Shown: positions 5,440 through 64,000, numbered from the stretch's first letter. The stretch: DNA of 64,000 bases from Candidatus Altiarchaeota archaeon (GCA_043800705.1 JAZDMS010000010.1:64001-128000); one strand, 5' to 3'. The notes: a model not told the origin generated them from the sequence alone. Made by a program: numbers and translations.

Positions 5440-6441
5440 ATGTCCTTCCTGAAACTCCTCGCAAGGGTGCTGCCGCAGGGCATGCGGGAAAAATACTCCA
5501 AAATGGTCGGGTATTCGACGCTGAAAACCAACCCCGACACGTTCATAGGATTCGCCATAACCGCCGGAATCGTCGCGGGATTCCTCCTGACCATCGCCAC
5601 AAACGGGCTAAAACCCCCATGGCCCCTCTCCATGCCCCTCGTCATGTTCACCGTCTCATTTACGGCCATGCAGCTTCTCATCTACATCTGGCTCACCCTC
5701 AACGTCAGCGCGAAAGGGCGCCAGGTCGAGACCGCCCTCCCCGACGCGCTGCAGCTCATGTCCTCAAACATACGCGCAGGCCTCACCACCGACAAGGCCC
5801 TCCTCATGTCCGCCCGCCCGGAATTCGGCGCATTGGAGGAGGAGATCAGGCGCGTGGGCAAGGAGACGATGGCGGGCAGAAACCTCACAGACGCCCTCTC
5901 CAGAATGACGCTGCACATAAAATCCACGGACCTGTCACGCACAGTAGAGCTCATAACCAACAGCATAAAATCCGGCGGCCAGCTCGCGGACCTGCTCGAC
6001 CAGACAGCGGACGACCTCAGGGACCAGCAGATCATCCAAAAGGAGATAAGCGCGAGCGTCCTCATGTATGTCCTGTTCATATTCATAGCCATAGCCATCG
6101 GAGCCCCCATGCTCTTCGCCATGTCCTCATTCCTCGTCGACCTACTGGCCAGGAACATGGCGATGATCTCCAGAGAAATGCCGAAAAACTTCGACGGCGC
6201 AGCCAAGATGCCGATAAAGATGACCGGCCTCAGCATCAGCACCGAATTCATAAAACAATACGCAGTAATATCCATCTCAATCTCCTGCATTATGGGCGCC
6301 ATGATCATGGGCCTCATACTCAAAGGCGAAGAAAAAGAAGGATTCAAATACGTCATCATAATGCTCCCCCTCGCCCTGATAATCTTCTTCGCCGCATCAT
6401 GGGGCCTCGAAATGACCATAGGCGGAATGATGCCGCGCTGA
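5440..6441 (+). CDS. Type II secretion system F family (TadC-like) platform protein
   Basis: LPDALQLMSSNIRAG..EFGAL..SGGQLADLL. Confidence 0.9.
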   Translation: MSFLKLLARVLPQGMREKYSKMVGYSTLKTNPDTFIGFAITAGIVAGFLLTIATNGLKPPWPLSMPLVMFTVSFTAMQLLIYIWLTLNVSAKGRQVETALPDALQLMSSNIRAGLTTDKALLMSARPEFGALEEEIRRVGKETMAGRNLTDALSRMTLHIKSTDLSRTVELITNSIKSGGQLADLLDQTADDLRDQQIIQKEISASVLMYVLFIFIAIAIGAPMLFAMSSFLVDLLARNMAMISREMPKNFDGAAKMPIKMTGLSISTEFIKQYAVISISISCIMGAMIMGLILKGEEKEGFKYVIIMLPLALIIFFAASWGLEMTIGGMMPR

Positions 6442-6527
6442 CGCGCAGAGGGCTACCCCCTCATTTTTTTGGATTGTAGGCCCCCCTTTTTTTAGCGAGT
6501 TTCGTCGTAAGGCAGCTCCAACCTTTC

Positions 6528-6648
6528 GGATAACATTGGGATTAAGCGAAGTCTGCGGAAGGACTGTCTATTCCTGACGTTTGCGCAGATTTGGGGCGCA
6601 GAGCACCCGACAAGGGTCCGAATGCGCCCGCTTAATCCCGCGTTATCC
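6528..6648 (-). repeat. attC-like integron recombination site 1
   Basis: Minus strand GGATAAC-5nt-ATTAAGCG...CGCTTAAT-6nt-GTTATCC; 121 bp, downstream of a cassette ORF. Confidence 0.8.
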
Positions 6649-6697
6649 GACCGAGCCCGACAAGGGCGAGGCTTGAGTTTTCGAACTGCCCCTATAC

Positions 6698-7075
6698 TTA
6701 GATAGTTATCTTTTTTTCGATTTTAATATTTTCTCCAGCGTGAGTCTTGATGATGGTATTGAATTCATCTAAATCTTTTGTTATAAGATTTGTCCGCATA
6801 TATGCAACTTGACTGCTTTCTCTTGTTAACTTCAAATCATATGGTCTCATTCCCCCATTAGATAAAAAGACACTACGAAGGATTTCTATTTTATCAAAAT
6901 CTTTCCACGCATAGAATTTATCTGGTTTGATACAATGAATTCCAGTAGAATAAACTTTAAAATATGGTTCAAACGGTTCAAAAATAAAGTTTGTTTGTAA
7001 TAACACTCTAAGTATGTTGTGCTTCTTAGGTTTATCTTCATAGACTAAACTGCCACGTTCTTTTACATCTATCAT
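6698..7075 (-). CDS. Gene cassette 1, hypothetical protein
   Basis: 125 aa AT-rich ORF between attC sites. Confidence 0.7.
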   Translation of the reverse strand: MIDVKERGSLVYEDKPKKHNILRVLLQTNFIFEPFEPYFKVYSTGIHCIKPDKFYAWKDFDKIEILRSVFLSNGGMRPYDLKLTRESSQVAYMRTNLITKDLDEFNTIIKTHAGENIKIEKKITI

Positions 7076-7125
7076 GTAGGTTATTGCAATTTCATTAAAA
7101 AGAGTTGTCTGGCAGCTCGAAAATT

Positions 7126-8335
7126 GATACTATGTAGGGTTCTTGCCTTTTGCCGTGTAATGCGGCTAAAGGAGGAGTATTAAGGAGTATTATGGAGAAC
7201 CCTACGGTTTATCTTGGATGTGATGCGCATAAAAAAGAGTGCGTTTTCTGCGGTTTGAATGAGGAAGGCAACCGTGTTTGGGAGGGTAAAACGCCCACAT
7301 GTTTGGCGGGATTCGAGTTTGTCAAAGGCAAACTCGAAGGCTATATTGTCAAAGTCGTGGTTGAGGCGGGAGGTTTCGTGTGGAAGATTACGGACTTATT
7401 CTCGGAGGTCGGTTTCCAGGTGTACGTGTGCAACCCCTCAAAGAATCCCCAGATCGGTTTGAGCAGGAAGAAAACCGATAAAGAAGATGCATTTAAGTTA
7501 GCTGATCTGCTTCGGGCGGGGTATTTGAAATGCATCTATATCCCCACGAAAGAGCAGAGGGAGTTGCGGTCTGTAAGCAGGGACAGGCATAGTCTTGGTC
7601 GATTGCGGGGTAGGCTGTTGACTCAGGCACGCACTGCATCGTATGAGCATCAGATAGAACGTCGCAAAAGGATCATTGAATGCGTAGATGATGAAATCAA
7701 GAGTCTGAAAAAAGAAATAACAGCGAATGCCGGGAAAAATCCGAGCATTCGGCTTTTAGACTCAACTCCTGGAATAGCGGAGTACGGGGCTAACCTAATC
7801 GTTGGGGAAATATGCACTATAGACCGGTTCCCCACCTGCAAACAGTACATCGCCTACTGTGGGCTGGTGCCGTCGGTACGTCAGTCGGGGAATACCTTGC
7901 ATCTGGGTGCGATAAGGAAGGATTCCAATCACCGGTTGAAGTGGGTGTATACCCAGTCTGCTTGGATAGCGGTAAGGTGGAATCAGGAACTCAGAAGATT
8001 ATACGATCGGAAAGCTCGGGAGAGGGGGAAGAAGAAGGCGATTATTGTTGTGGCGAAGAAACTCGCCACAAGGAACTATTGGATGCTCAAAGAAAACAAA
8101 ACATACCAGGAACTGGTAGCCGCTTTTATCCGAATAGGCTAATCAAGCCTTACAGATTGTTTGCGGATCAGATCCCTGGACGGATCAGTACAGTAGGCTA
8201 ACCAAGCCTGAATGGTTGAATGTCGGAAGACGACTCACAAAGTACTGACCACGAAAAAAGAAACAAGTAAAATTCTGGAAGGTCTTATTATAGCGGCAGC
8301 CCTATACACATACCAGGCAAGAACCCACATGGTTT
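7126..8335 (+). mobile_element. IS110/IS1111-type insertion sequence A
   Basis: Subterminal IRs ATGTAGGGTTCTTGCCT (7132-7148) and AGGCAAGAACCCACAT (8315-8330); TT at both junctions; non-coding region downstream of the transposase. Confidence 0.8.
7150..8142 (+). CDS. IS110-family DEDD transposase/recombinase (likely start ATG 7192)
   Basis: GCDAHK, VVEA, KTDKEDA, PGI, YCGLVPSVRQSG. Confidence 0.95.
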   Translation: MPCNAAKGGVLRSIMENPTVYLGCDAHKKECVFCGLNEEGNRVWEGKTPTCLAGFEFVKGKLEGYIVKVVVEAGGFVWKITDLFSEVGFQVYVCNPSKNPQIGLSRKKTDKEDAFKLADLLRAGYLKCIYIPTKEQRELRSVSRDRHSLGRLRGRLLTQARTASYEHQIERRKRIIECVDDEIKSLKKEITANAGKNPSIRLLDSTPGIAEYGANLIVGEICTIDRFPTCKQYIAYCGLVPSVRQSGNTLHLGAIRKDSNHRLKWVYTQSAWIAVRWNQELRRLYDRKARERGKKKAIIVVAKKLATRNYWMLKENKTYQELVAAFIRIG

Positions 8336-8336
8336 C

Positions 8337-8454
8337 GGATAACATGGCAGGTAACCGAAGTTCGCCGAAGAAACGTCGCCAGACTGACAATTGGGCGAAT
8401 TTGGGGAACCACGGACCCGCAGGCAGAGAATTCCCGCTTAGCCGTACGTTATAC
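8337..8454 (-). repeat. attC-like site 2
   Basis: Plus strand GGATAAC...CGCTTAGCCGTACGTTATAC, same branched architecture as site 1. Confidence 0.75.
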
Positions 8455-8517
8455 GAGGCGAACCGCAGTGAGCCCGAGCCCCTGAAAGGGGCGAGCGTGC
8501 CTGCCAAGTTTTTTTTG

Positions 8518-8988
8518 TTATTGTTTTAGTTTGATATACCCTTCAATTAGTCTTAGGACTTTTACTTCTCCTTCCCTGTTTAGTGGTTTTTGGACGTATT
8601 CATTTGCGCCAATTCTAGGTCTCTCTTCATCTGACGGTAGTCTACCTGACAACATTATTACTACCTGGTCACCGTTGGATGTTTTCTTTATATCTGGAAT
8701 AACAGTATCCCCAGACATTCCTGGCATTTCTCTATCACACACTACAACATCATACTTCTTTGGGGAGTACTTTTCAAGACCATCCATACCGTTAGCGGCT
8801 AAATCAACATCCCAACCTTGTCGCACCATAATCATTTGGAGTCGATCACGCAATATCTCATCATCATCTATTAAAAGAATCTTTGGTTTACTCACTCTGG
8901 CACTTAAATGTGGTTGGAGTTGACGCACCTCTCCTAAGCTTATCTTATCTGCTAAAGGATTTCTGGTTGAAATATGCTGCGTGACCAT
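8518..8988 (-). CDS. Gene cassette 2, stand-alone response-regulator receiver protein
   Basis: ILLIDDDE, VVCDREMPGMSG, LSG, YVQKP. Confidence 0.9.
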   Translation of the reverse strand: MVTQHISTRNPLADKISLGEVRQLQPHLSARVSKPKILLIDDDEILRDRLQMIMVRQGWDVDLAANGMDGLEKYSPKKYDVVVCDREMPGMSGDTVIPDIKKTSNGDQVVIMLSGRLPSDEERPRIGANEYVQKPLNREGEVKVLRLIEGYIKLKQ

Positions 8989-9214
8989 GTTATTAGATAT
9001 AATAATGAAAACTATTTAACTTGGCAGGCATGTCGTATAACATCGCGGGTAAGCGAAGTTCCCGCGATGGACTGCCTCTGACCCACTTTTGGCGGGAATT
9101 TGGGGCGCCGCGTACCCGGCAAGGGATCACGAACGCCCGCTTAGCCGCATTCCTTAGAACTTTTTCTTTTGGCTGTGTGTTTACATTTTATTAGTCCTCT
9201 ATCTTATTAATCTT

Positions 9215-9364
9215 TTGAGGGCATGGGGCTGTTCCACAATCGTTCCTCGGCGCTCACTGGGCGCAATTTGGTAAGTGGTAAACGGAGCCCCCAATCACGT
9301 TACAGAAGCTTCAGCCTCGGGTGAGGTTGGCTTAGCGGCTAAACGGGGGTGCCCGTGCCCTCAA
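9215..9364 (-). ncRNA. Predicted bridge RNA/seekRNA of IS B
   Basis: Closing stem TTGAGGGCAYGGG; two internal loops carrying matches to the attC target and to the IS circle junction. Confidence 0.75.
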
Positions 9365-9386
9365 CTGAAGTAAAGAACTTAATCTT

Positions 9387-10376
9387 TTATGCCACCTCCC
9401 TGTATGGTTCCTGGTTGGTGAGCATGTGCCAGATGATGGTCGCCATTTTCCGGGCGGTGCTTCTTCTGGCGGTTTGCATGCCTTTTCTTTTTTGGATTTT
9501 GTAGTAGTGTTTCATGAATCTTGTGTCGATTGTTGCAGCTTTCCCGGAGGATTCGTAGAGTATCCATTTGAGCCATTTGTTGACTGCGTGTTTTTCTACG
9601 GTGTGTTCTTTGCTGCCGGATTGGTAGATTCCGGGGCATAGTCCGCAGTAGCTGATGAGGTGTTGGGGTGTTTTGAATCGTTTTATGTCTCCGATTTCCG
9701 CCAGGATGAACAGGGCTGAGTATTCAGCTACTCCGGGCAGGCTCATCAGCAAACTTGTTTGATGGTTGCTGCGGCTTATTTTTTCTATCCGGTTTTTGGC
9801 TTCTTGTTCTTCGGCGTGTACGGTGTCGTAGACGTTCAGGAGGTTGGTGGTGTTCTGGTCCTGGTTTTGTTTTTTGAAGGCTGTTAGCATCTTTTTTGTC
9901 CAGAGGTTTTTGGGGCAGGTTTGACCTTCCCGAATGAGATTCGTCTTTATTTTGGTTTTTACCTGTGTTTGTATCCTGGTTATGCTGCTTTTGTGTCTGC
10001 ATAGGTCTCGTAGTTTCTGTGTTTCTTCGCCGGGTATGTAGACTTCGGGCAGGTAGTTGGTTCGCAGCAGGTCTGCGAGTATTTTGGCGTCGCCCCAGTC
10101 TGTTTTTTTGTTTGCGGCAAGTTGGTGTGTTTTTAGGGGATTAGCTAGTTTGACTGTGTATCCGAGTGTTGTTAGGTTTCTGTATGCTGGTCGCCACATT
10201 CCGCAGGCTTCTACGGCTACTGTCAGATGGGTGTTAGGTATCCCTGTCACGAACCGTTCAACAGCGTCTTTTCTGGCGGGGAATTCATTCTCCCGAACGA
10301 CTTTTCCCCTGGCATCCATGATGCACCCGGTGTACTTTTCCTTGTGTATGTCCAACCCGCAAAACAACTGATCCAT
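9387..10376 (-). CDS. IS110-family DEDD transposase/recombinase
   Basis: GLDIHK, AVEA, KTDWGDA, LPGV, YCGLCPGIYQSG; SD GGAGGTGA ahead of ATG 10376. Confidence 0.95.
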   Translation of the reverse strand: MDQLFCGLDIHKEKYTGCIMDARGKVVRENEFPARKDAVERFVTGIPNTHLTVAVEACGMWRPAYRNLTTLGYTVKLANPLKTHQLAANKKTDWGDAKILADLLRTNYLPEVYIPGEETQKLRDLCRHKSSITRIQTQVKTKIKTNLIREGQTCPKNLWTKKMLTAFKKQNQDQNTTNLLNVYDTVHAEEQEAKNRIEKISRSNHQTSLLMSLPGVAEYSALFILAEIGDIKRFKTPQHLISYCGLCPGIYQSGSKEHTVEKHAVNKWLKWILYESSGKAATIDTRFMKHYYKIQKRKGMQTARRSTARKMATIIWHMLTNQEPYREVA

Positions 10377-10506
10377 ATTTTTCACCTCCCCGGGGCTTAT
10401 AGACGGTAATAAGCCCCATAATAAACTATTTGCCTAAAGAAAAAGTTCTACTACCATCACGTTATGCGCCCCTGGGCGACAAGCCCAGGGTTCGAAGCCC
10501 AAAATA

Positions 10507-11121
10507 TTATTCTGTAAAAGAATGATTCAAGATATAGTCAGCTGGCAATACTTTCGACTCATCTTCATTATACCAGAAGCACTGTTTTTGTTTGCTATAG
10601 AAAGAGCTATTCATGTTGCAGCATATATTACAGCAAACATAGGAGTGATCAGGGATTTTAGTGACATAAAACTTTTTGAAGGTGTCATATCCGTCTTTTT
10701 CAAATTCACCAAAGAAACCCGTTACGTTAAACGGTTTAGCTCCGAAATACACTAATTTGCTGGTTTCCCTAGTCAGGCAGTTATCTGTTTTCATGTCCCA
10801 GAGGATGACGTCGTTATCCGCAAATGTGCAACTTTTGAATTTCGACTTTCTTGCTACTGCTGTTATATTCTCAATTCCAGCAGAAATTGTTTCAGTCCTA
10901 TTCGATATCCTTATAGGATACTCTTCAGAGGGTTCACAATTGAAGATATACCATCCATGGTAGTCGATAACTTTAGGGATCAAAGATAAATTCACTTGAA
11001 TAGTACTTGTAGAAATTGAGGATAATCTATGTGTCGTTGAAGTAATTCCTTGATTTGTGTCCGAACCAATACACCCACAAAAGAGTAATACCAGGGTTAA
11101 TGAAGGCAATATTTGATTCAC
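10507..11121 (-). CDS. Gene cassette 3, Cys-containing predicted lipoprotein
   Basis: LVLLFCGCIG lipobox-like N terminus, Ser/Thr linker, AT-rich. Confidence 0.7.
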   Translation of the reverse strand: MNQILPSLTLVLLFCGCIGSDTNQGITSTTHRLSSISTSTIQVNLSLIPKVIDYHGWYIFNCEPSEEYPIRISNRTETISAGIENITAVARKSKFKSCTFADNDVILWDMKTDNCLTRETSKLVYFGAKPFNVTGFFGEFEKDGYDTFKKFYVTKIPDHSYVCCNICCNMNSSFYSKQKQCFWYNEDESKVLPADYILNHSFTE

Positions 11122-11203
11122 ATTTATCTATACATCCTCTAGCAATAAAATCGTTTGGGTCGTTTGGGCTTCGAAAGTCAGTTCGCCGCAGCGAGCCGAT
11201 TGC

Positions 11204-11326
11204 GCATAACATTGGGGCTAAACGAAGTCCGCCGAGGAAACGCCGCCAGAGTGACTTTTGGGCGGATTTGGGCAACCACGTACCCCGACAAGGGGCAGAG
11301 AATTGCCGTTTAGCCCTGCGTTATCC
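11204..11326 (-). repeat. attC-like site 4
   Basis: Plus strand GCATAAC-ATTGGG-GCTAAACG...CGTTTAGC-CCTGC-GTTATCC; 123 bp. Confidence 0.8.
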
Positions 11327-11401
11327 GACCGAGCCCGGCAAGGGCGAGGCAAGCCCCTCCAAAAGGAGGGGCGTAGAGTCGCGGAGGGGCAATAGTTCTT
11401 A

Positions 11402-12289
11402 TTATTCCCTTAGCCGTAATCTTTTTTGATTTGTCTCGATTAATCTCAATCTTCTTTTTATTCGAGTCTGAGGTATTTGATTTCTTAGGAATATCATACC
11501 CTCATCAGTCAGTCTCCCAGCTTCTCTCTCACTAGGTTCTTGTAGATATCCCCGTCGTAAATATTCCTCTTCTGTCTCAATAATTTCTTTTTTAGTTTTT
11601 AGGGGTGGTTTTTGGACTGATAATACTATCACTCCATCAATACCGTATCCATCCATAAAATCAATGAGAGCAAGCTCATACGTACTATATAAACGTAATC
11701 CCCGAAAGGTCGATGCTGTATCTGTTAATGACTCCATATAAGGATTTTCTCTCCATCTTTGACAAAAGTAATTTTTACTTAATTTAAATAATCTCCAATA
11801 ATCTTTAATTCTTTTTTCATCTCTATCCAAAATTCTACTTTTTAGATGTTCATTTATAACAACACTATAATAGATCGGACTGATTACGGCAAGGGCAGAA
11901 TGAATTAATTCGTGTTCTAAGCTGTTTGTTTCATGTACTAGCTTTTCTGGCCCTTTGGAGTAAGGATAATCCGCCACACTGATAAGGTTATGGGTGAGAG
12001 AATAGCGTCCACCAACACTTTTCTTGTGTTTTATTGAAATCTGTAATGGTAATAACTCTTCAATAGGCACTTCCCAGATTTGTGATATTCGTTGAAATAA
12101 ACTTCTAACTATTGGAGTCATGTTTTCCAATCTAAACTTTCCACCCTCCTCCGGAACAATCAATAAACCATATGTCCTATCAGTCAATGAACGAGTATCA
12201 TACCCTTCCCAAATCTTTGGAAAAGAATCATTAAATCTTTGGTGAAATTCTTCAACCCGTTGGTCCTTATTTTTTTTCTTAATGTGCAT
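11402..12289 (-). CDS. Gene cassette 4, hypothetical protein with HExxH zinc-metallopeptidase motif
   Basis: SLEHELIHSA plus downstream E (YMESLT); ATG near 12289 chosen because the longer ORF crosses the recombination site. Confidence 0.6.
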   Translation of the reverse strand: MHIKKKNKDQRVEEFHQRFNDSFPKIWEGYDTRSLTDRTYGLLIVPEEGGKFRLENMTPIVRSLFQRISQIWEVPIEELLPLQISIKHKKSVGGRYSLTHNLISVADYPYSKGPEKLVHETNSLEHELIHSALAVISPIYYSVVINEHLKSRILDRDEKRIKDYWRLFKLSKNYFCQRWRENPYMESLTDTASTFRGLRLYSTYELALIDFMDGYGIDGVIVLSVQKPPLKTKKEIIETEEEYLRRGYLQEPSEREAGRLTDEGMIFLRNQIPQTRIKRRLRLIETNQKRLRLRE

Positions 12290-12342
12290 ACACACCAATA
12301 AGATATCTGAACAATGACTATATATTGCCCCTCCGTGATTTC

Positions 12343-12410
12343 GGATAACACCGATTACCCGCAATTGTTGCGGGTAATCGCTCTTTTGGGCTGGTTACCC
12401 GCAGTTATGG
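12343..12410 (-). other. Array-proximal recombination site (candidate attI or atypical attC)
   Basis: Core GTTATCC on minus strand, perfect 13-bp hairpin 12352-12380, direct repeat TTACCCGCA at 12355 and 12395. Confidence 0.5.
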
Positions 12411-12494
12411 GCATTATTTTTCCGATGCTCTGTGGGCCGTGGTTTTGGTCTTTATCGTTGGGGTTTTATATTCGCCGGCCGCCTTTTTCTTTGT

Positions 12495-12677
12495 ATGGAA
12501 TGCAGGAGGGCCTTGAATTTGAAGGCCTGCAATTGCACGTATCCGTGTGAGCGGAGGGGTTTGTGTTGCGAGTGCGTGGCATATCATCGGAAGCGGAATG
12601 AGCTGCCGGCCTGCTATTTTGATAAAGATGCTGAGAAGTCGTATGATCGGAGCATTGAGCGATTTATGCAAGGCTAA
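12495..12677 (+). CDS. Small Cys-rich protein (DUF6485-like)
   Basis: [20 protein letters not shown]...LPACYF. Confidence 0.75.
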
Positions 12678-12710: not shown

Positions 12711-13367
12711 TCAGTCTTCGTCTGTGCAGCAGCATTTTCTGCTGTGTTCGCTGCAGGGGCCTTTGGTGAGCGGCATCTGTATGTCTGGGGAGGTGCAGTT
12801 GTAGTTGGTGCAGTAGAATATGCCGTATCCTTCGTCGTCGCAGGCAAAGTCGCATTCGTTCAGGTATTTGGTTATGCAGCGGCCGTATTCGCACCTTTCA
12901 TAGATGTCGCAGGCTAATACGGCTGTGTTCTTCGGCTTGCCGAGGCAGTAGCTGTCCGGGTGGCCGCGGTTCACGCACGTATACGTCGTCGAGTAGTTCC
13001 ATATCGTGTTCCCCTTGCATTTGAGTTCCGATACGACTAATCCGCCGCAGTCCGCTTCGGAATTGCAGCGTTTGCCTTTGAGGGTCGTGGTCGTAGTGGA
13101 TGACGTGGTCTCTGATGACGATGTAGTGGTCGTGGATTCTGTCGATGTCGTCGTCGAGGTGGTAGTGGTGGACGACGTGGTGGTCGTGATGGTGGATGAT
13201 GTGGTCGTGGTCGTCGACGAAGTCGGCAGGACAATGTACCATACGCTGTTGAGGACGGCTTCGGCTGAATTCACGAATAGGGCCGAGGGGATTAAAAGCA
13301 GCAGAACGAGCATTATGCCCATTATTGCGACGAGGGCCGTCATGACGGCCTCTTCCTTGGCGACCAT
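12711..13367 (-). CDS. Membrane-anchored Thr-rich, Cys-rich surface protein
   Basis: N-terminal TM, poly-Thr/Ser linker, many Cys. Confidence 0.75.
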   Translation of the reverse strand: MVAKEEAVMTALVAIMGIMLVLLLLIPSALFVNSAEAVLNSVWYIVLPTSSTTTTTSSTITTTTSSTTTTSTTTSTESTTTTSSSETTSSTTTTTLKGKRCNSEADCGGLVVSELKCKGNTIWNYSTTYTCVNRGHPDSYCLGKPKNTAVLACDIYERCEYGRCITKYLNECDFACDDEGYGIFYCTNYNCTSPDIQMPLTKGPCSEHSRKCCCTDED

Positions 13368-61764: not shown

Positions 61765-62710
61765 ATTTCCCCTTCAACTTCATCCTTACATTTCGTATTA
61801 TGTTCTCGCCCTTTTTGGTTTTAAGGTTTATACCGCTTTCACATTCCCTGAGGAACATCTCCTTGGCTCTTTTCCCAACGTCCGGGGAGCCTATGTGTAC
61901 TCCGCCGATGATATCCTCTCTGTTGTCTCTGATGTAAAGAAACACATCTATTGGCTGGATTTTCTCCGGGAGGACAAGATCTAAACCGAAAAGCCTTTCA
62001 GTATATACTATATCCACATTGTCCATTTTCCTAAGTTCGCACAGATTTTCTATCGTCTTCTGGCATTCGAGATATGCTAAACCGGGATTCTTGTATGTTT
62101 GTAAGGCCTGGTGATAGAGGTAATCTATGTCCAAGTTGGTAAGGTATTTGGCTTTTAGTCTTTTCTTGAAACAGCCGTCGTATATGGCTTTAACGTATTC
62201 CGCTCTTCCGATTCCGGCAAGCATTGTCGGGGTATATGAAATTTTTGCGAATTTTCCGACAACATAGTGGACCTTTGCGACCCTGACTAGTTGGGCAAGT
62301 TTATGGTAAAACTGGTCATATTCCAGATATTCGACAACTGGTTTAAACTGACTTACTTTTATCCTCGAAAAATACGCATCCACCTCGTCGACAACCTTCT
62401 CAAATTCAGAAATCTCCCTATATCTCTCCTCTTTTTTCTGCCTTAACGTCTTTTCTACAAAATCAAAATCGACCTCGTAGCATGCATACTCCGTTTGTTT
62501 AATGTGTCCCTTGTTTTTCAGTAATCTAAGAACGTTAAAGAGGTTCGGTTTCATAAGATGCTTCCCCCTAAGTTTTCTATACTCCTCTTGTATCGCCTTG
62601 GGTGCGGCAACTATTCCCCTCTCATGAATCTGATAAACGCATTGTAGAATATCGAATTGCTGGGGTGTAAGCCCTAATCCCTCTGAAACCATCTTTAAAT
62701 CAAATTCCAC
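61748..62710 (-). CDS. TrmB-like regulator, paralog B
   Basis: Aligns end to end with paralog A. Confidence 0.7.
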   Translation of the reverse strand: MEFDLKMVSEGLGLTPQQFDILQCVYQIHERGIVAAPKAIQEEYRKLRGKHLMKPNLFNVLRLLKNKGHIKQTEYACYEVDFDFVEKTLRQKKEERYREISEFEKVVDEVDAYFSRIKVSQFKPVVEYLEYDQFYHKLAQLVRVAKVHYVVGKFAKISYTPTMLAGIGRAEYVKAIYDGCFKKRLKAKYLTNLDIDYLYHQALQTYKNPGLAYLECQKTIENLCELRKMDNVDIVYTERLFGLDLVLPEKIQPIDVFLYIRDNREDIIGGVHIGSPDVGKRAKEMFLRECESGINLKTKKGENIIRNVRMKLKGKYGRFS

Positions 62711-62836
62711 CAGACCACCCTATACAATAGCGGGTAACCTAGATTAAAAAGAAACTGTAACGACTGTAATACTACAGTGTAATACTCTTCATTCAGGACA
62801 TTCGTCTGATTTCTTATGGTTGCCACCGATAATTTT

Positions 62837-63809
62837 TTACGTTTTCCGTTTTAGTTGTTGTCGAATCTTTTTATAGATTTTTCTCCCTGTGCTGTCGTTT
62901 TTTAGCAGTTGGGCATGTTTACAAACTTCATTAAACCTGTCGAGGGCATTCTTAGTTGCCTCCGGAGATCGAATGTATATTCCCCCAATATGTACCTGAT
63001 TCTCGTCACGAACGAAAATAAACATCTCTTCGGGTTCATCCTTTACTGGTATAATGACGTCCAAACCGAATGGATTACTGTAATAAAAAATATTTAGTAA
63101 TTCATTTTCAGAAATCTGTCTTTCAAGATTGTTGATTATTTTTTCACACTCAGTCTCAATCGTTTTTTTGTCATTAAACGTCAACCGTACATATTCCCAA
63201 AGGATATTTATTTATTGATAACGGGGAGAGATAAGTTATCCTCAACTCCTTTTTATTAAAGCACTGATTTTTTATGATGTCAAGGTACTCTCCTCTTTGT
63301 ATGCCTTTAGTTGAGACCTCTTCCGTATAAGAAATACCTGGAAAACCCGCCACTATGTAATACTCTCTAATCTCCTTCAACCTTGGGTTAACCATGTCCC
63401 AGAAAGCTTTCCTGTCACGGATATACTCAACATATGGCTTAGTATTTTTAATGGAACCTTTTTGGAAGAATTCCTCTATCTTAGATGATATTCCCTCAAA
63501 ATTCTTCATTTCGATTTCAAAATCCTTTTTTCTGGATTGGATTATTTCCCTTATTGCACTCATATTGACTATGTATGTGCCCTTTCCAAGTTTGCTTACT
63601 ATCTGCAGTTCGACCAATGTTTTAAGTATCCCGAATAAATTGGGTGGTTTGATCCTTTTTCCGTATCTTTTAGAATATTCCTCTAATACCGCCTTCGGTT
63701 TAGTCTCTTTTCCCCTTATTTCTAGCTCATGCAAAGAAATCAAAATCTCAAACTCTTGAATAGTTATCCCCAACCATCTATTGAACCTTTCAAAATCATC
63801 TGGTTCCAT
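62837..63809 (-). pseudogene. TrmB-like regulator, paralog C, +1 frameshift near 63197
   Basis: N half PPNLFGIL and C half FVRDENQVHIGGIYIRSP lie in different frames. Confidence 0.7.
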
Positions 63810-64000
63810 AATATACTAAGTATAATAGATACTATATCCTGATATACATATATTTATACTAATGTTGATAGATTTATTATATGTCTCTTTCAGGTAGATC
63901 GTTAATCTCTCCCCTTGATTGCGGGAGTAATTACTTCTTAAAACTTTCTGAAAGAAGTAATACCTTGACTATTCCAGGCTCTATCATTAAACAGAATGCT

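Follow-up and report, generated by a model that had tools for sequence, protein, structure and literature searches.

An integron-type cassette array without an adjacent integrase in an archaeal genome, and a XerA-like recombinase as the candidate enzyme

The locus described here bears on the question of which enzyme moves gene cassettes in archaea. We analyzed a 64,000-nucleotide (nt) stretch of Candidatus Altiarchaeota archaeon DNA (GCA_043800705.1 JAZDMS010000010.1:64001-128000), hereafter the window, in which positions 6442-12494 are an integron-type cassette array with no integrase alongside, i.e., a cluster of attC sites lacking an integron integrase (CALIN). Sequence reading and a repeat finder (repeat families D1, D3, D4 and D6) located four structured palindromes of ~125 nt, the attC sites, and a fifth, shorter terminal site within positions 6526-12412. 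The four palindromes align at 76% mean column identity, and each lies directly downstream of one minus-strand open reading frame (ORF). This is the arrangement of related TAAC...GTTA palindromes that a first-pass annotation, made from the sequence alone, had described. The working definition of a CALIN in Ghaly 2022 (PMC9668308) asks for two or more attC sites separated by less than 4 kb and no adjacent integrase. The starts of the five window sites are spaced 1809, 698, 2169 and 1139 nt apart, and no match to the tyrosine recombinase family PF00589 was found on the contig (C35), as the first-pass annotation had also observed for the window. This CALIN was inserted as a block into an archaeal chromosome. 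We consider it probable, although well short of certain, that its cassettes pass through a circular form and that they would be moved in trans by a XerA-type enzyme encoded on another contig of the same genome, C17.

In what follows, G000 is the genome under study, G001 and higher numbers are its relatives, L numbers are named or metagenome loci and C numbers are contigs. The parts of the array, in window coordinates, are the following.

6442-12494, no strand: whole inserted block, i.e., cassette array plus two short end stretches; absent between the same two genes in G001, G003, G004 and G005
6526-6650, plus: attC_D; the strand that folds (the "bottom" strand) is the plus strand; left box TCGGATAAC, right box GTTATCCGA; covariance model 149.9 bits
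6651-6690, plus: GC-rich hairpin domain (CCGAGCCCGACAAGGGCGAGG motif) and one arm of the cassette D flanking repeat; repeat family D3
6678-6690 and 7111-7123: flanking inverted repeat of cassette D, 12/13
6698-7075, minus: cassette D ORF, 125 amino acids, no family match
7126-8334, plus: insertion sequence IS#1, IS110 family, approximate ends; transposase 7193-8142; inverted repeat 7134-7147 and 8316-8328
8335-8456, plus: attC_C; covariance model 127.7 bits
8518-8988, minus: cassette C ORF, 156 amino acids, response-regulator receiver domain; flanking repeat 8498-8510 and 9018-9030, 13 nt, perfect
9033-9149, plus: larger part of attC_B (left box, L arms and junction hairpins); covariance model 111.6 bits
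9150-10459, minus: insertion sequence IS#2, IS1111-like, within attC_B, separating its right box from the L arm; transposase 9387-10385; subterminal repeats 9155-9173 and 10432-10450; non-coding 9150-9386
10460-10469, plus: right box of attC_B (CGTTATGCGC)
10507-11121, minus: cassette B ORF, 204 amino acids, no family match; flanking repeat 10491-10503 and 11163-11175, 13 nt, perfect
11202-11328, plus: attC_A; covariance model 146.8 bits
11402-12289, minus: cassette A ORF, 295 amino acids from the first ATG, no family match; flanking repeat 11382-11394 and 12323-12335, 13 nt, perfect
12341-12412, plus: terminal attI-like site; left box 12341-12349; 11-nt inverted arms within 12353-12379 with a 7-nt spacer; third arm copy 12393-12403; right box 12404-12412
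12417-12431, plus: leader-like motif TTTTTCCGATGCTCT, also directly upstream of recombinase genes on G000:C17, G018:C109, G015:C212 and G008:C56

The first-pass annotation had ended the array at 12410; the array itself stands, but the right box of the fifth site runs to 12412. Likewise, its third palindrome is an attC, but the insertion sequence (IS) of 1310 bp that splits this site (attC_B) had gone unnamed.

How the cassettes begin and end was examined in the raw sequence. In all four window cassettes, the starting 9 nt complement those that open the cassette's own attC at 9/9 positions, and the two boxes of one linear attC are unlike in three of the four sites. Both regularities had been proposed in the first-pass annotation, which read them as the footprint of a G^TT crossover of circular cassettes. 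The boundary footprint indeed falls within GTTAT, and independent arrays obey the same rule. At 17 junctions drawn from arrays in relatives and in named metagenome-assembled genomes (MAGs), the four variable box positions matched the box of the neighboring cassette at a mean of 2.94/4, as opposed to 1.92/4 for the other box of the same attC and 1.87/4 for random pairs; none of 5000 permutations reached 2.94. The cassette-specific bases outside the crossover agree in every case with the opposite end of the same cassette, so the cassettes must have passed through a circular state. From these boxes we infer that strand exchange takes place within the invariant ATAA|C (read as G|TT on the complementary strand). 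The window contains 11 copies of the box motif GTTATNCG where 5.5 would be expected (at least 11 in 4 of 100 shuffles), and the boxes of the att sites account for nine of the 11 occurrences.

The cassettes carry a second mark of their identity. Perfect, cassette-specific inverted repeats of 10-15 nt were found in six of the seven G000 cassettes (A-C in the window and X1-X3 on contig C37), lengths that no more than 1 of 300 shuffles attained. One arm is found 0-26 nt past the starting box and the other just after the ORF, 21-53 nt before the attC. In the seventh cassette (D), the repeat matches at 12/13 positions and its arms have been pushed apart by IS#1, which is inserted between the starting box and the flanking repeat. 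In a circular cassette, these arms would lengthen the R-box stem. The stretch between the second arm and the attC contains GC hairpins and a CCGAGC..GCGAGG-type motif, which recurs after the right box in many relatives. At G000:C21:137-420 and L041:6132-6608, the cassette ORF is reversed relative to the attC when compared with the usual direction.

We then modeled the fold of the attC. RNAalifold applied to the four window copies yielded an L helix and two hairpins, i.e., a three-way junction, with 10 of 26 pairs compensated. A covariance model built from this structure with added R-box pairs matched the four window copies, two more on G000 contig C37, copies in 14 of the 60 relatives and loci in named archaeal MAGs. 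In 47 distinct copies from G000, relatives and named DPANN MAGs, aligned by fitting to the model, 93.9% of cells were paired, compared with 75.6% after shuffling and at most 49% when partners were slid; compensatory changes on both sides were present in 26 of 33 pairs. The elements in order are the R box, a short asymmetric spacer, the L box (TAANCG) and the two-hairpin junction. On the modeled strand, G-T wobbles outnumbered A-C mismatches by 104 to 24, indicating that, as in bacterial integrons, the attC strand that folds is the one opposite most cassette ORFs. In this model, the attC is a fold of single-stranded DNA of that strand. No conserved bulged (extrahelical) base was seen by eye in the L helix. 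A strict hairpin finder had also been tried; it recovered two of the four window attCs and none in G026 and was dropped in favor of the covariance model and reading by eye.

To place the array in its genome, we compared the locus across relatives. The block measures 6.05 kb and separates a T2SSF-like gene (5440-6441) from a DUF6485 gene (12495-12677). These two genes lie 1-5 nt apart in G001, G003 and G004 and ~700 nt apart in G005, and the downstream gene order in G001 is that of the window. The block is absent from the same locus in all four relatives in which the locus is assembled. The uninterrupted locus in the relatives indicates a clean insertion of the block that is specific to the lineage, so that gene order at the locus is not fixed, which answers the comparison of cassette order that had been proposed at the outset. 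The G+C fraction is 0.41-0.48 over 6-13 kb as compared with 0.54-0.62 in the flanks. The contig that holds the window is 211 kb long and archaeal: the window encodes GatE (743 bits, cut-off 456), PriS (154 bits, cut-off 143.5), an archaeal STT3-like protein (90.3 bits, below the cut-off of 450) and KaiC- and archaeal pilus-type genes. On these marker genes, the array sits on an archaeal chromosome contig. The host is probably a member of Altiarchaeota, because the recombinases of two genomes of the same family are identical to proteins labeled Altiarchaeales or Altiarchaeota at NCBI. G000 has a second array at C37:1040-3780, beside a thermosome gene, and a third attC, also cut by the IS1111-like element, at the start of contig C21.

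The first-pass annotation had postulated an integrase elsewhere in the genome. A recombinase gene does exist at C17:175-993, beside a site of the terminal type, but the protein is XerA-like and not of the IntI type. It is the only tyrosine recombinase found in G000 (272 amino acids, PF00589). It scored 172.5 bits with the archaeal XerA model NF040815 (cut-off 220) and 168 bits, in two stretches, with the integron integrase model TIGR02249 (cut-off 265). It aligned end to end with Pyrococcus abyssi XerA, and with VchIntIA in two pieces that skip ~45 residues, i.e., the region of the IntI-specific domain. No protein scored above the TIGR02249 cut-off in any of 61 genomes (G000 and 60 relatives, a class sample); where both halves of this model matched, they did so in two stretches that skip profile positions ~180-230. 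Array-linked proteins of G037, L041 and L043 pass the XerA model with 243, 231 and 272 bits, and the family is ~55% identical to proteins of many archaeal phyla.

The distribution of these recombinases was uneven. PF00589 had no match in 24 of the 61 genomes, including all four congeners (70-92% complete) and genomes that are 88-93% complete. Where a Xer-like gene is present, it very often lies less than 1 kb from a contig end, or its contig is 2-9 kb long. Several relatives have a single Xer-like gene only, and G026, a one-contig genome, has two paralogues, of which only one is linked to a site. In a recombinase tree made by a quick method with SH-aLRT support only, the arrangement of site plus gene is kept across two well-supported clades; IntI1 falls on a long branch in a polytomy, and thus we draw no conclusion on the origin of IntI. 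The tree also contains a well-supported XerA-like clade with an N-terminal extension of ~70-100 residues (…FPYNKDYIEKIK…WH…KYW…), represented by G046:C9, G021:C49, G021:C11, G051:C2, G053:C79 and G055:C135. No box-type site was seen upstream of these six genes.

The site directly upstream of the C17 gene consists of a left box ATTGAGTTTAAC, 4 bases, an 11-nt arm, a 7-nt spacer and the inverted arm, and continues with a TTTTTGGG stretch, a third copy of the arm, GTTAT and the leader TTTTCCGGTGCTCT. The window site at 12341-12431 has the same parts in the same order with the same leader motif, without a recombinase gene after it. Terminal sites of this kind number at least three in G000 (C17, window and C37). 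By eye, the spacer between the 11-nt arms is 6 nt in L041 and G024 and 7 nt in C17 and the window. We also considered the left box plus first arm as a dif of 11+6+11 layout; this fits C17 and the window (9/11 each, by eye) and does not fit G037, G024 or L041, so it is no general rule.

The same kind of site was found upstream of the recombinase gene in 14 of the 22 loci inspected in relatives. The remaining eight belong to the clade with the N-terminal extension (six), an XerC/D-like protein (one) and a second paralogue (one). In 10 of the 14 site-bearing loci, the contig breaks 0-770 nt past the box, as would be expected of an assembly that meets variable or repeated cassettes. Where the assembly runs on, a first cassette is present, and its attC was compared with the recombinase-proximal box. 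In G037:C28, L041, L071 and L073, the right box of this attC complements the proximal box at 9/9 positions, and thus the site directly beside the XerA-like gene bounds the first cassette, as an attI does; in G026, L043 and L074, the match is 8/9. In G026, a run of N directly follows the first small attC beside the recombinase gene (C1 ~1256030-1256130; L063:1030-1130), and the array is readable only to that point.

The link was also approached from either partner alone. Seven archaeal loci of 8 kb were found by attC pattern alone, and a gene of this recombinase family lies less than 2 kb away in two of them (L041 and L043); for a gene that occurs about once per genome, this is far from chance. 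In the opposite direction, 80 metagenome loci with Xer-like proteins were collected with the recombinase alignment, most of them distant and presumably bacterial Xer, so that the six closest are the informative ones; three of these six had attC matches, each of them upstream and with matching orientation, and the other 74 had none.

Each cassette is a single unit made up of a box half, a flank repeat, the ORF, the partner repeat, the GC-rich hairpin domain and the attC. We propose the following mechanism. The enzyme would be the XerA-family tyrosine recombinase on C17, which lacks the extra domain specific to IntI. It would act on the attI-like site in front of its gene, in which the left box is followed by 11-nt inverted arms with a 6-7-nt spacer, i.e., the dif layout, and by a third arm copy. 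Cassettes may enter at the left box of the recombinase-proximal site. The window array, which ends in a copy of this site without the gene, would be served in trans. Counting together the readings in which the enzyme is dedicated to cassettes and those in which it is borrowed, we hold XerA to be the likeliest enzyme with somewhat more assurance than the scheme as a whole. Opinion could fall evenly on either side of the wider proposal that a plain recombinase of the XerA family, without the IntI-specific domain, serves Altiarchaeota, DPANN and related archaea as the cassette integrase of an integron-like platform made up of xerA, a box-plus-dif-like attI and long attCs with a three-way junction. 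Such a platform may represent a surviving proto-integron stage on the way from Xer/dif to integrons or an independent invention.

Several observations weigh against this scheme. The window array is not adjacent to a recombinase gene; the C17 contig stops 80 nt into its first cassette, and no G000 contig end carries an attC box able to pair with that cassette. The C17 protein itself falls below the NCBI cut-off for XerA. G000 is 87.5% complete, and an IntI may be encoded in the remainder or may act from a different cell. The box rule is broken in two arrays, L039 (three junctions) and L043 (one junction). The fold figures lean toward the modeled structure and strand, the alignment having been fitted to the model. 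Counted by hand, attC matches and Xer-like genes co-occur in seven of the 61 genomes against ~5.7 expected, which is not above chance; the covariance model is insensitive for such a count (it missed the G037 attC), and we draw no claim from co-occurrence. Finally, the account of Thermococcales in Cortez 2010 (PMC2958812) describes a dif that does not lie next to xerA. Gene adjacency is thus no general feature of XerA, and the adjacency seen here requires its own explanation.

The strongest competitor, which we nevertheless regard as unlikely, is a classical CALIN served by a canonical IntI, complete with the IntI-specific domain, whose gene would lie in the 12% of the genome missing from the assembly, on a mobile element left out of the bin or in a different organism, with capture after DNA uptake; the XerA neighborhood would then be incidental or a landing at a secondary site. 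The incompleteness of the assembly leaves room for such an enzyme, and the boxes here are near the canonical RYYYAAC/GTTRRRY. Ghaly 2022 (PMC9668308) reports true IntIs in a few archaeal MAGs and recombination of archaeal attCs by bacterial IntI1, and a preprint (10.1101/2022.09.11.507474) describes IntI-driven insertion outside att sites in bacteria. Against this, none of the 61 genomes passes the IntI cut-off although 15 carry these attCs, and the recombinase-proximal box obeys the cassette-boundary rule at 9/9 positions in at least four loci. An incidental neighborhood also leaves unexplained why site and gene are conserved together over two well-supported clades.

A second possibility, more doubtful again, departs from the XerA scheme only in whether the enzyme is dedicated or borrowed: a housekeeping XerA and the chromosomal dif would be exploited by cassettes in the manner of integrative mobile elements exploiting Xer (IMEX), without a dedicated integron. 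There is precedent in the CTX phage, whose single-stranded DNA hairpin integrates through XerCD. The array-linked proteins that pass the NCBI XerA equivalog model, their ~55% identity to proteins of many archaeal phyla and the relatives with this one Xer-like gene only are as expected of a housekeeping enzyme. The 11-nt arms and 6-7-nt spacer read by eye in L041, G024, C17 and the window also resemble the dif layout of 11-nt arms and a 6-nt spacer given in PMC8371274 and PMC2958812. A housekeeping role is hard to square with the 24 genomes, all four same-genus relatives among them, that have no tyrosine recombinase, and with the two paralogues of G026, of which one is site-linked. Moreover, dif is a single-copy site, whereas G000 has at least three terminal sites, and the one in the window lies inside an acquired block.

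That the palindromes are no recombination sites at all but intergenic structured repeats, e.g., repetitive extragenic palindromes or miniature inverted-repeat transposable elements, terminators or small RNAs, is very improbable: they are intergenic, structured and repeated, and the adjoining GC hairpins could be terminators, but insertion of a repeat cannot make the bases right of one copy complement those left of the next across an unrelated ORF, the raw window sequence excludes alignment choice as a source of the boundary rule, Rfam gives no match, and single-gene units have been cleanly inserted and harbor an IS family that targets attCs.

This IS family is represented by IS#2, the element that splits attC_B. 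It encodes a DEDD transposase (PF01548 and PF02371; NF033542 220.8 bits), has 19-nt subterminal inverted repeats (I7) and carries a 236-nt non-coding region downstream of the transposase gene. Copies or remnants occupy the same attC position in the window, at C21:1-136, at C37:3734-3775 (in a decayed terminal attC) and in the relative G040, and the junction CATCA|CGTTAT is identical in the window and C21. A DEDD transposase, subterminal repeats, a downstream non-coding region and a fixed insertion point in attC are together the marks of attC-targeting IS1111 elements. In bacteria, such elements (ISKpn4 and ISPst6) choose their target by a seekRNA (Siddiquee 2024, PMC11187229). The non-coding region of IS#2 contains ATCACGTTA, a 9-mer that spans the IS end and the target, and a 12/13 match to the flanking L arm, which agrees with the seekRNA mechanism of the bacterial elements. 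The element parasitizes these attCs, probably guided by an RNA from its non-coding region. A solo copy of this region (77% over 222 nt) lies at G000:C4:62391-62596. It has no transposase gene with it, lies in no obvious attC and may be an orphan guide-RNA region.

The cassette products gave few clues. PADLOC and a protein atlas provided no usable function for them; the receiver-domain protein had a weak SduA/DUF4263 match, and cassette A had sub-threshold SprT/peptidase-like leads. The N-terminus of the cassette B product is a hydrophobic stretch ending in LLFCGC, which resembles a lipoprotein signal. Secreted and membrane proteins are described as enriched among integron cassettes (PMC9668308). 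Scans of the window with Rfam (at gathering thresholds) and for tRNA gave no match, and no Rfam attC family was matched.

Compared with known integrons and CALINs, including the archaeal ones (Ghaly 2022, PMC9668308), the array is alike in that single-gene cassettes follow one another in tandem, most of them oriented the same way, and a folded attC with R and L boxes closes each of them. It shares the G|TT crossover, the hybrid boxes in the linear array, the predominance of genes of unknown function and the similarity of attCs within a genome. It differs in that G000 and its 60 relatives have no IntI-domain integrase and the recombinase beside the attI-like site is XerA-like, in that the attC additionally has a GC-rich hairpin domain and, past the R box, an outer stem specific to each cassette, and in that no conserved extrahelical L-box bases were seen by eye. 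With Xer/dif systems it has in common a XerA-family recombinase, a proximal site of 11-nt inverted arms with a 6-7-nt spacer, a gene adjoining its site and an apparent folded single-stranded substrate. In single-recombinase systems, i.e., XerS/difSL and XerH/difH, dif also lies beside the gene. Xer/dif systems differ in that the arrays here hold many single-gene cassettes with long structured attCs, there are several terminal sites per genome and the recombinase is missing from many relatives. IS#2 agrees with the IS1111-attC group (PMC11187229) in its DEDD transposase, subterminal repeats, long downstream non-coding region and fixed insertion near one attC end, and differs in its archaeal host, in the attC family and in that its guide RNA is deduced from two short non-coding matches.

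The first-pass annotation had called archaeal integrons and CALINs reported but little characterized, which is fair: those in print are mostly CALINs, with 539 attCs and six IntIs among 75 genomes, and the archaeal IntIs carry the IntI-specific domain (Ghaly 2022, PMC9668308). Since archaeal CALINs have already been published, the array is, as a CALIN, of a known kind. It is one of few that lie firmly on a long chromosomal contig with archaeal markers, and it is a recent insertion. The link between XerA and integron cassettes looks new; no paper that connects XerA-type recombinases with cassette arrays was found in the literature searched, a scope outside which most subscription journals and supplements fell. 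The candidate mover of archaeal cassettes would be a small XerA-type enzyme with its own insertion site, which lies beside first cassettes in several unrelated assemblies. If this is true, the IntI-specific domain is not required for attC recombination, and searches that demand it overlook an entire class of platforms. The hypothesis that integron integrases descend from Xer recombinases would gain a living intermediate, and a XerA platform would explain why IntI is almost universally absent from archaeal attC arrays. IS#2 adds that attC-hunting elements of the IS1111 type exist in archaea.

Two further features of the window lie outside the array. A 218-amino-acid ORF on the minus strand (12711-13367) spans short tandem repeats of the GTGGTCGTGG type (D2 and D5); it has sub-threshold Pfam matches only, and the relative G001 has a counterpart at the same position with 36% identity. 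At the right end of the window (62000-64000), the G+C fraction falls to 0.34-0.40, and this may be another acquired region.

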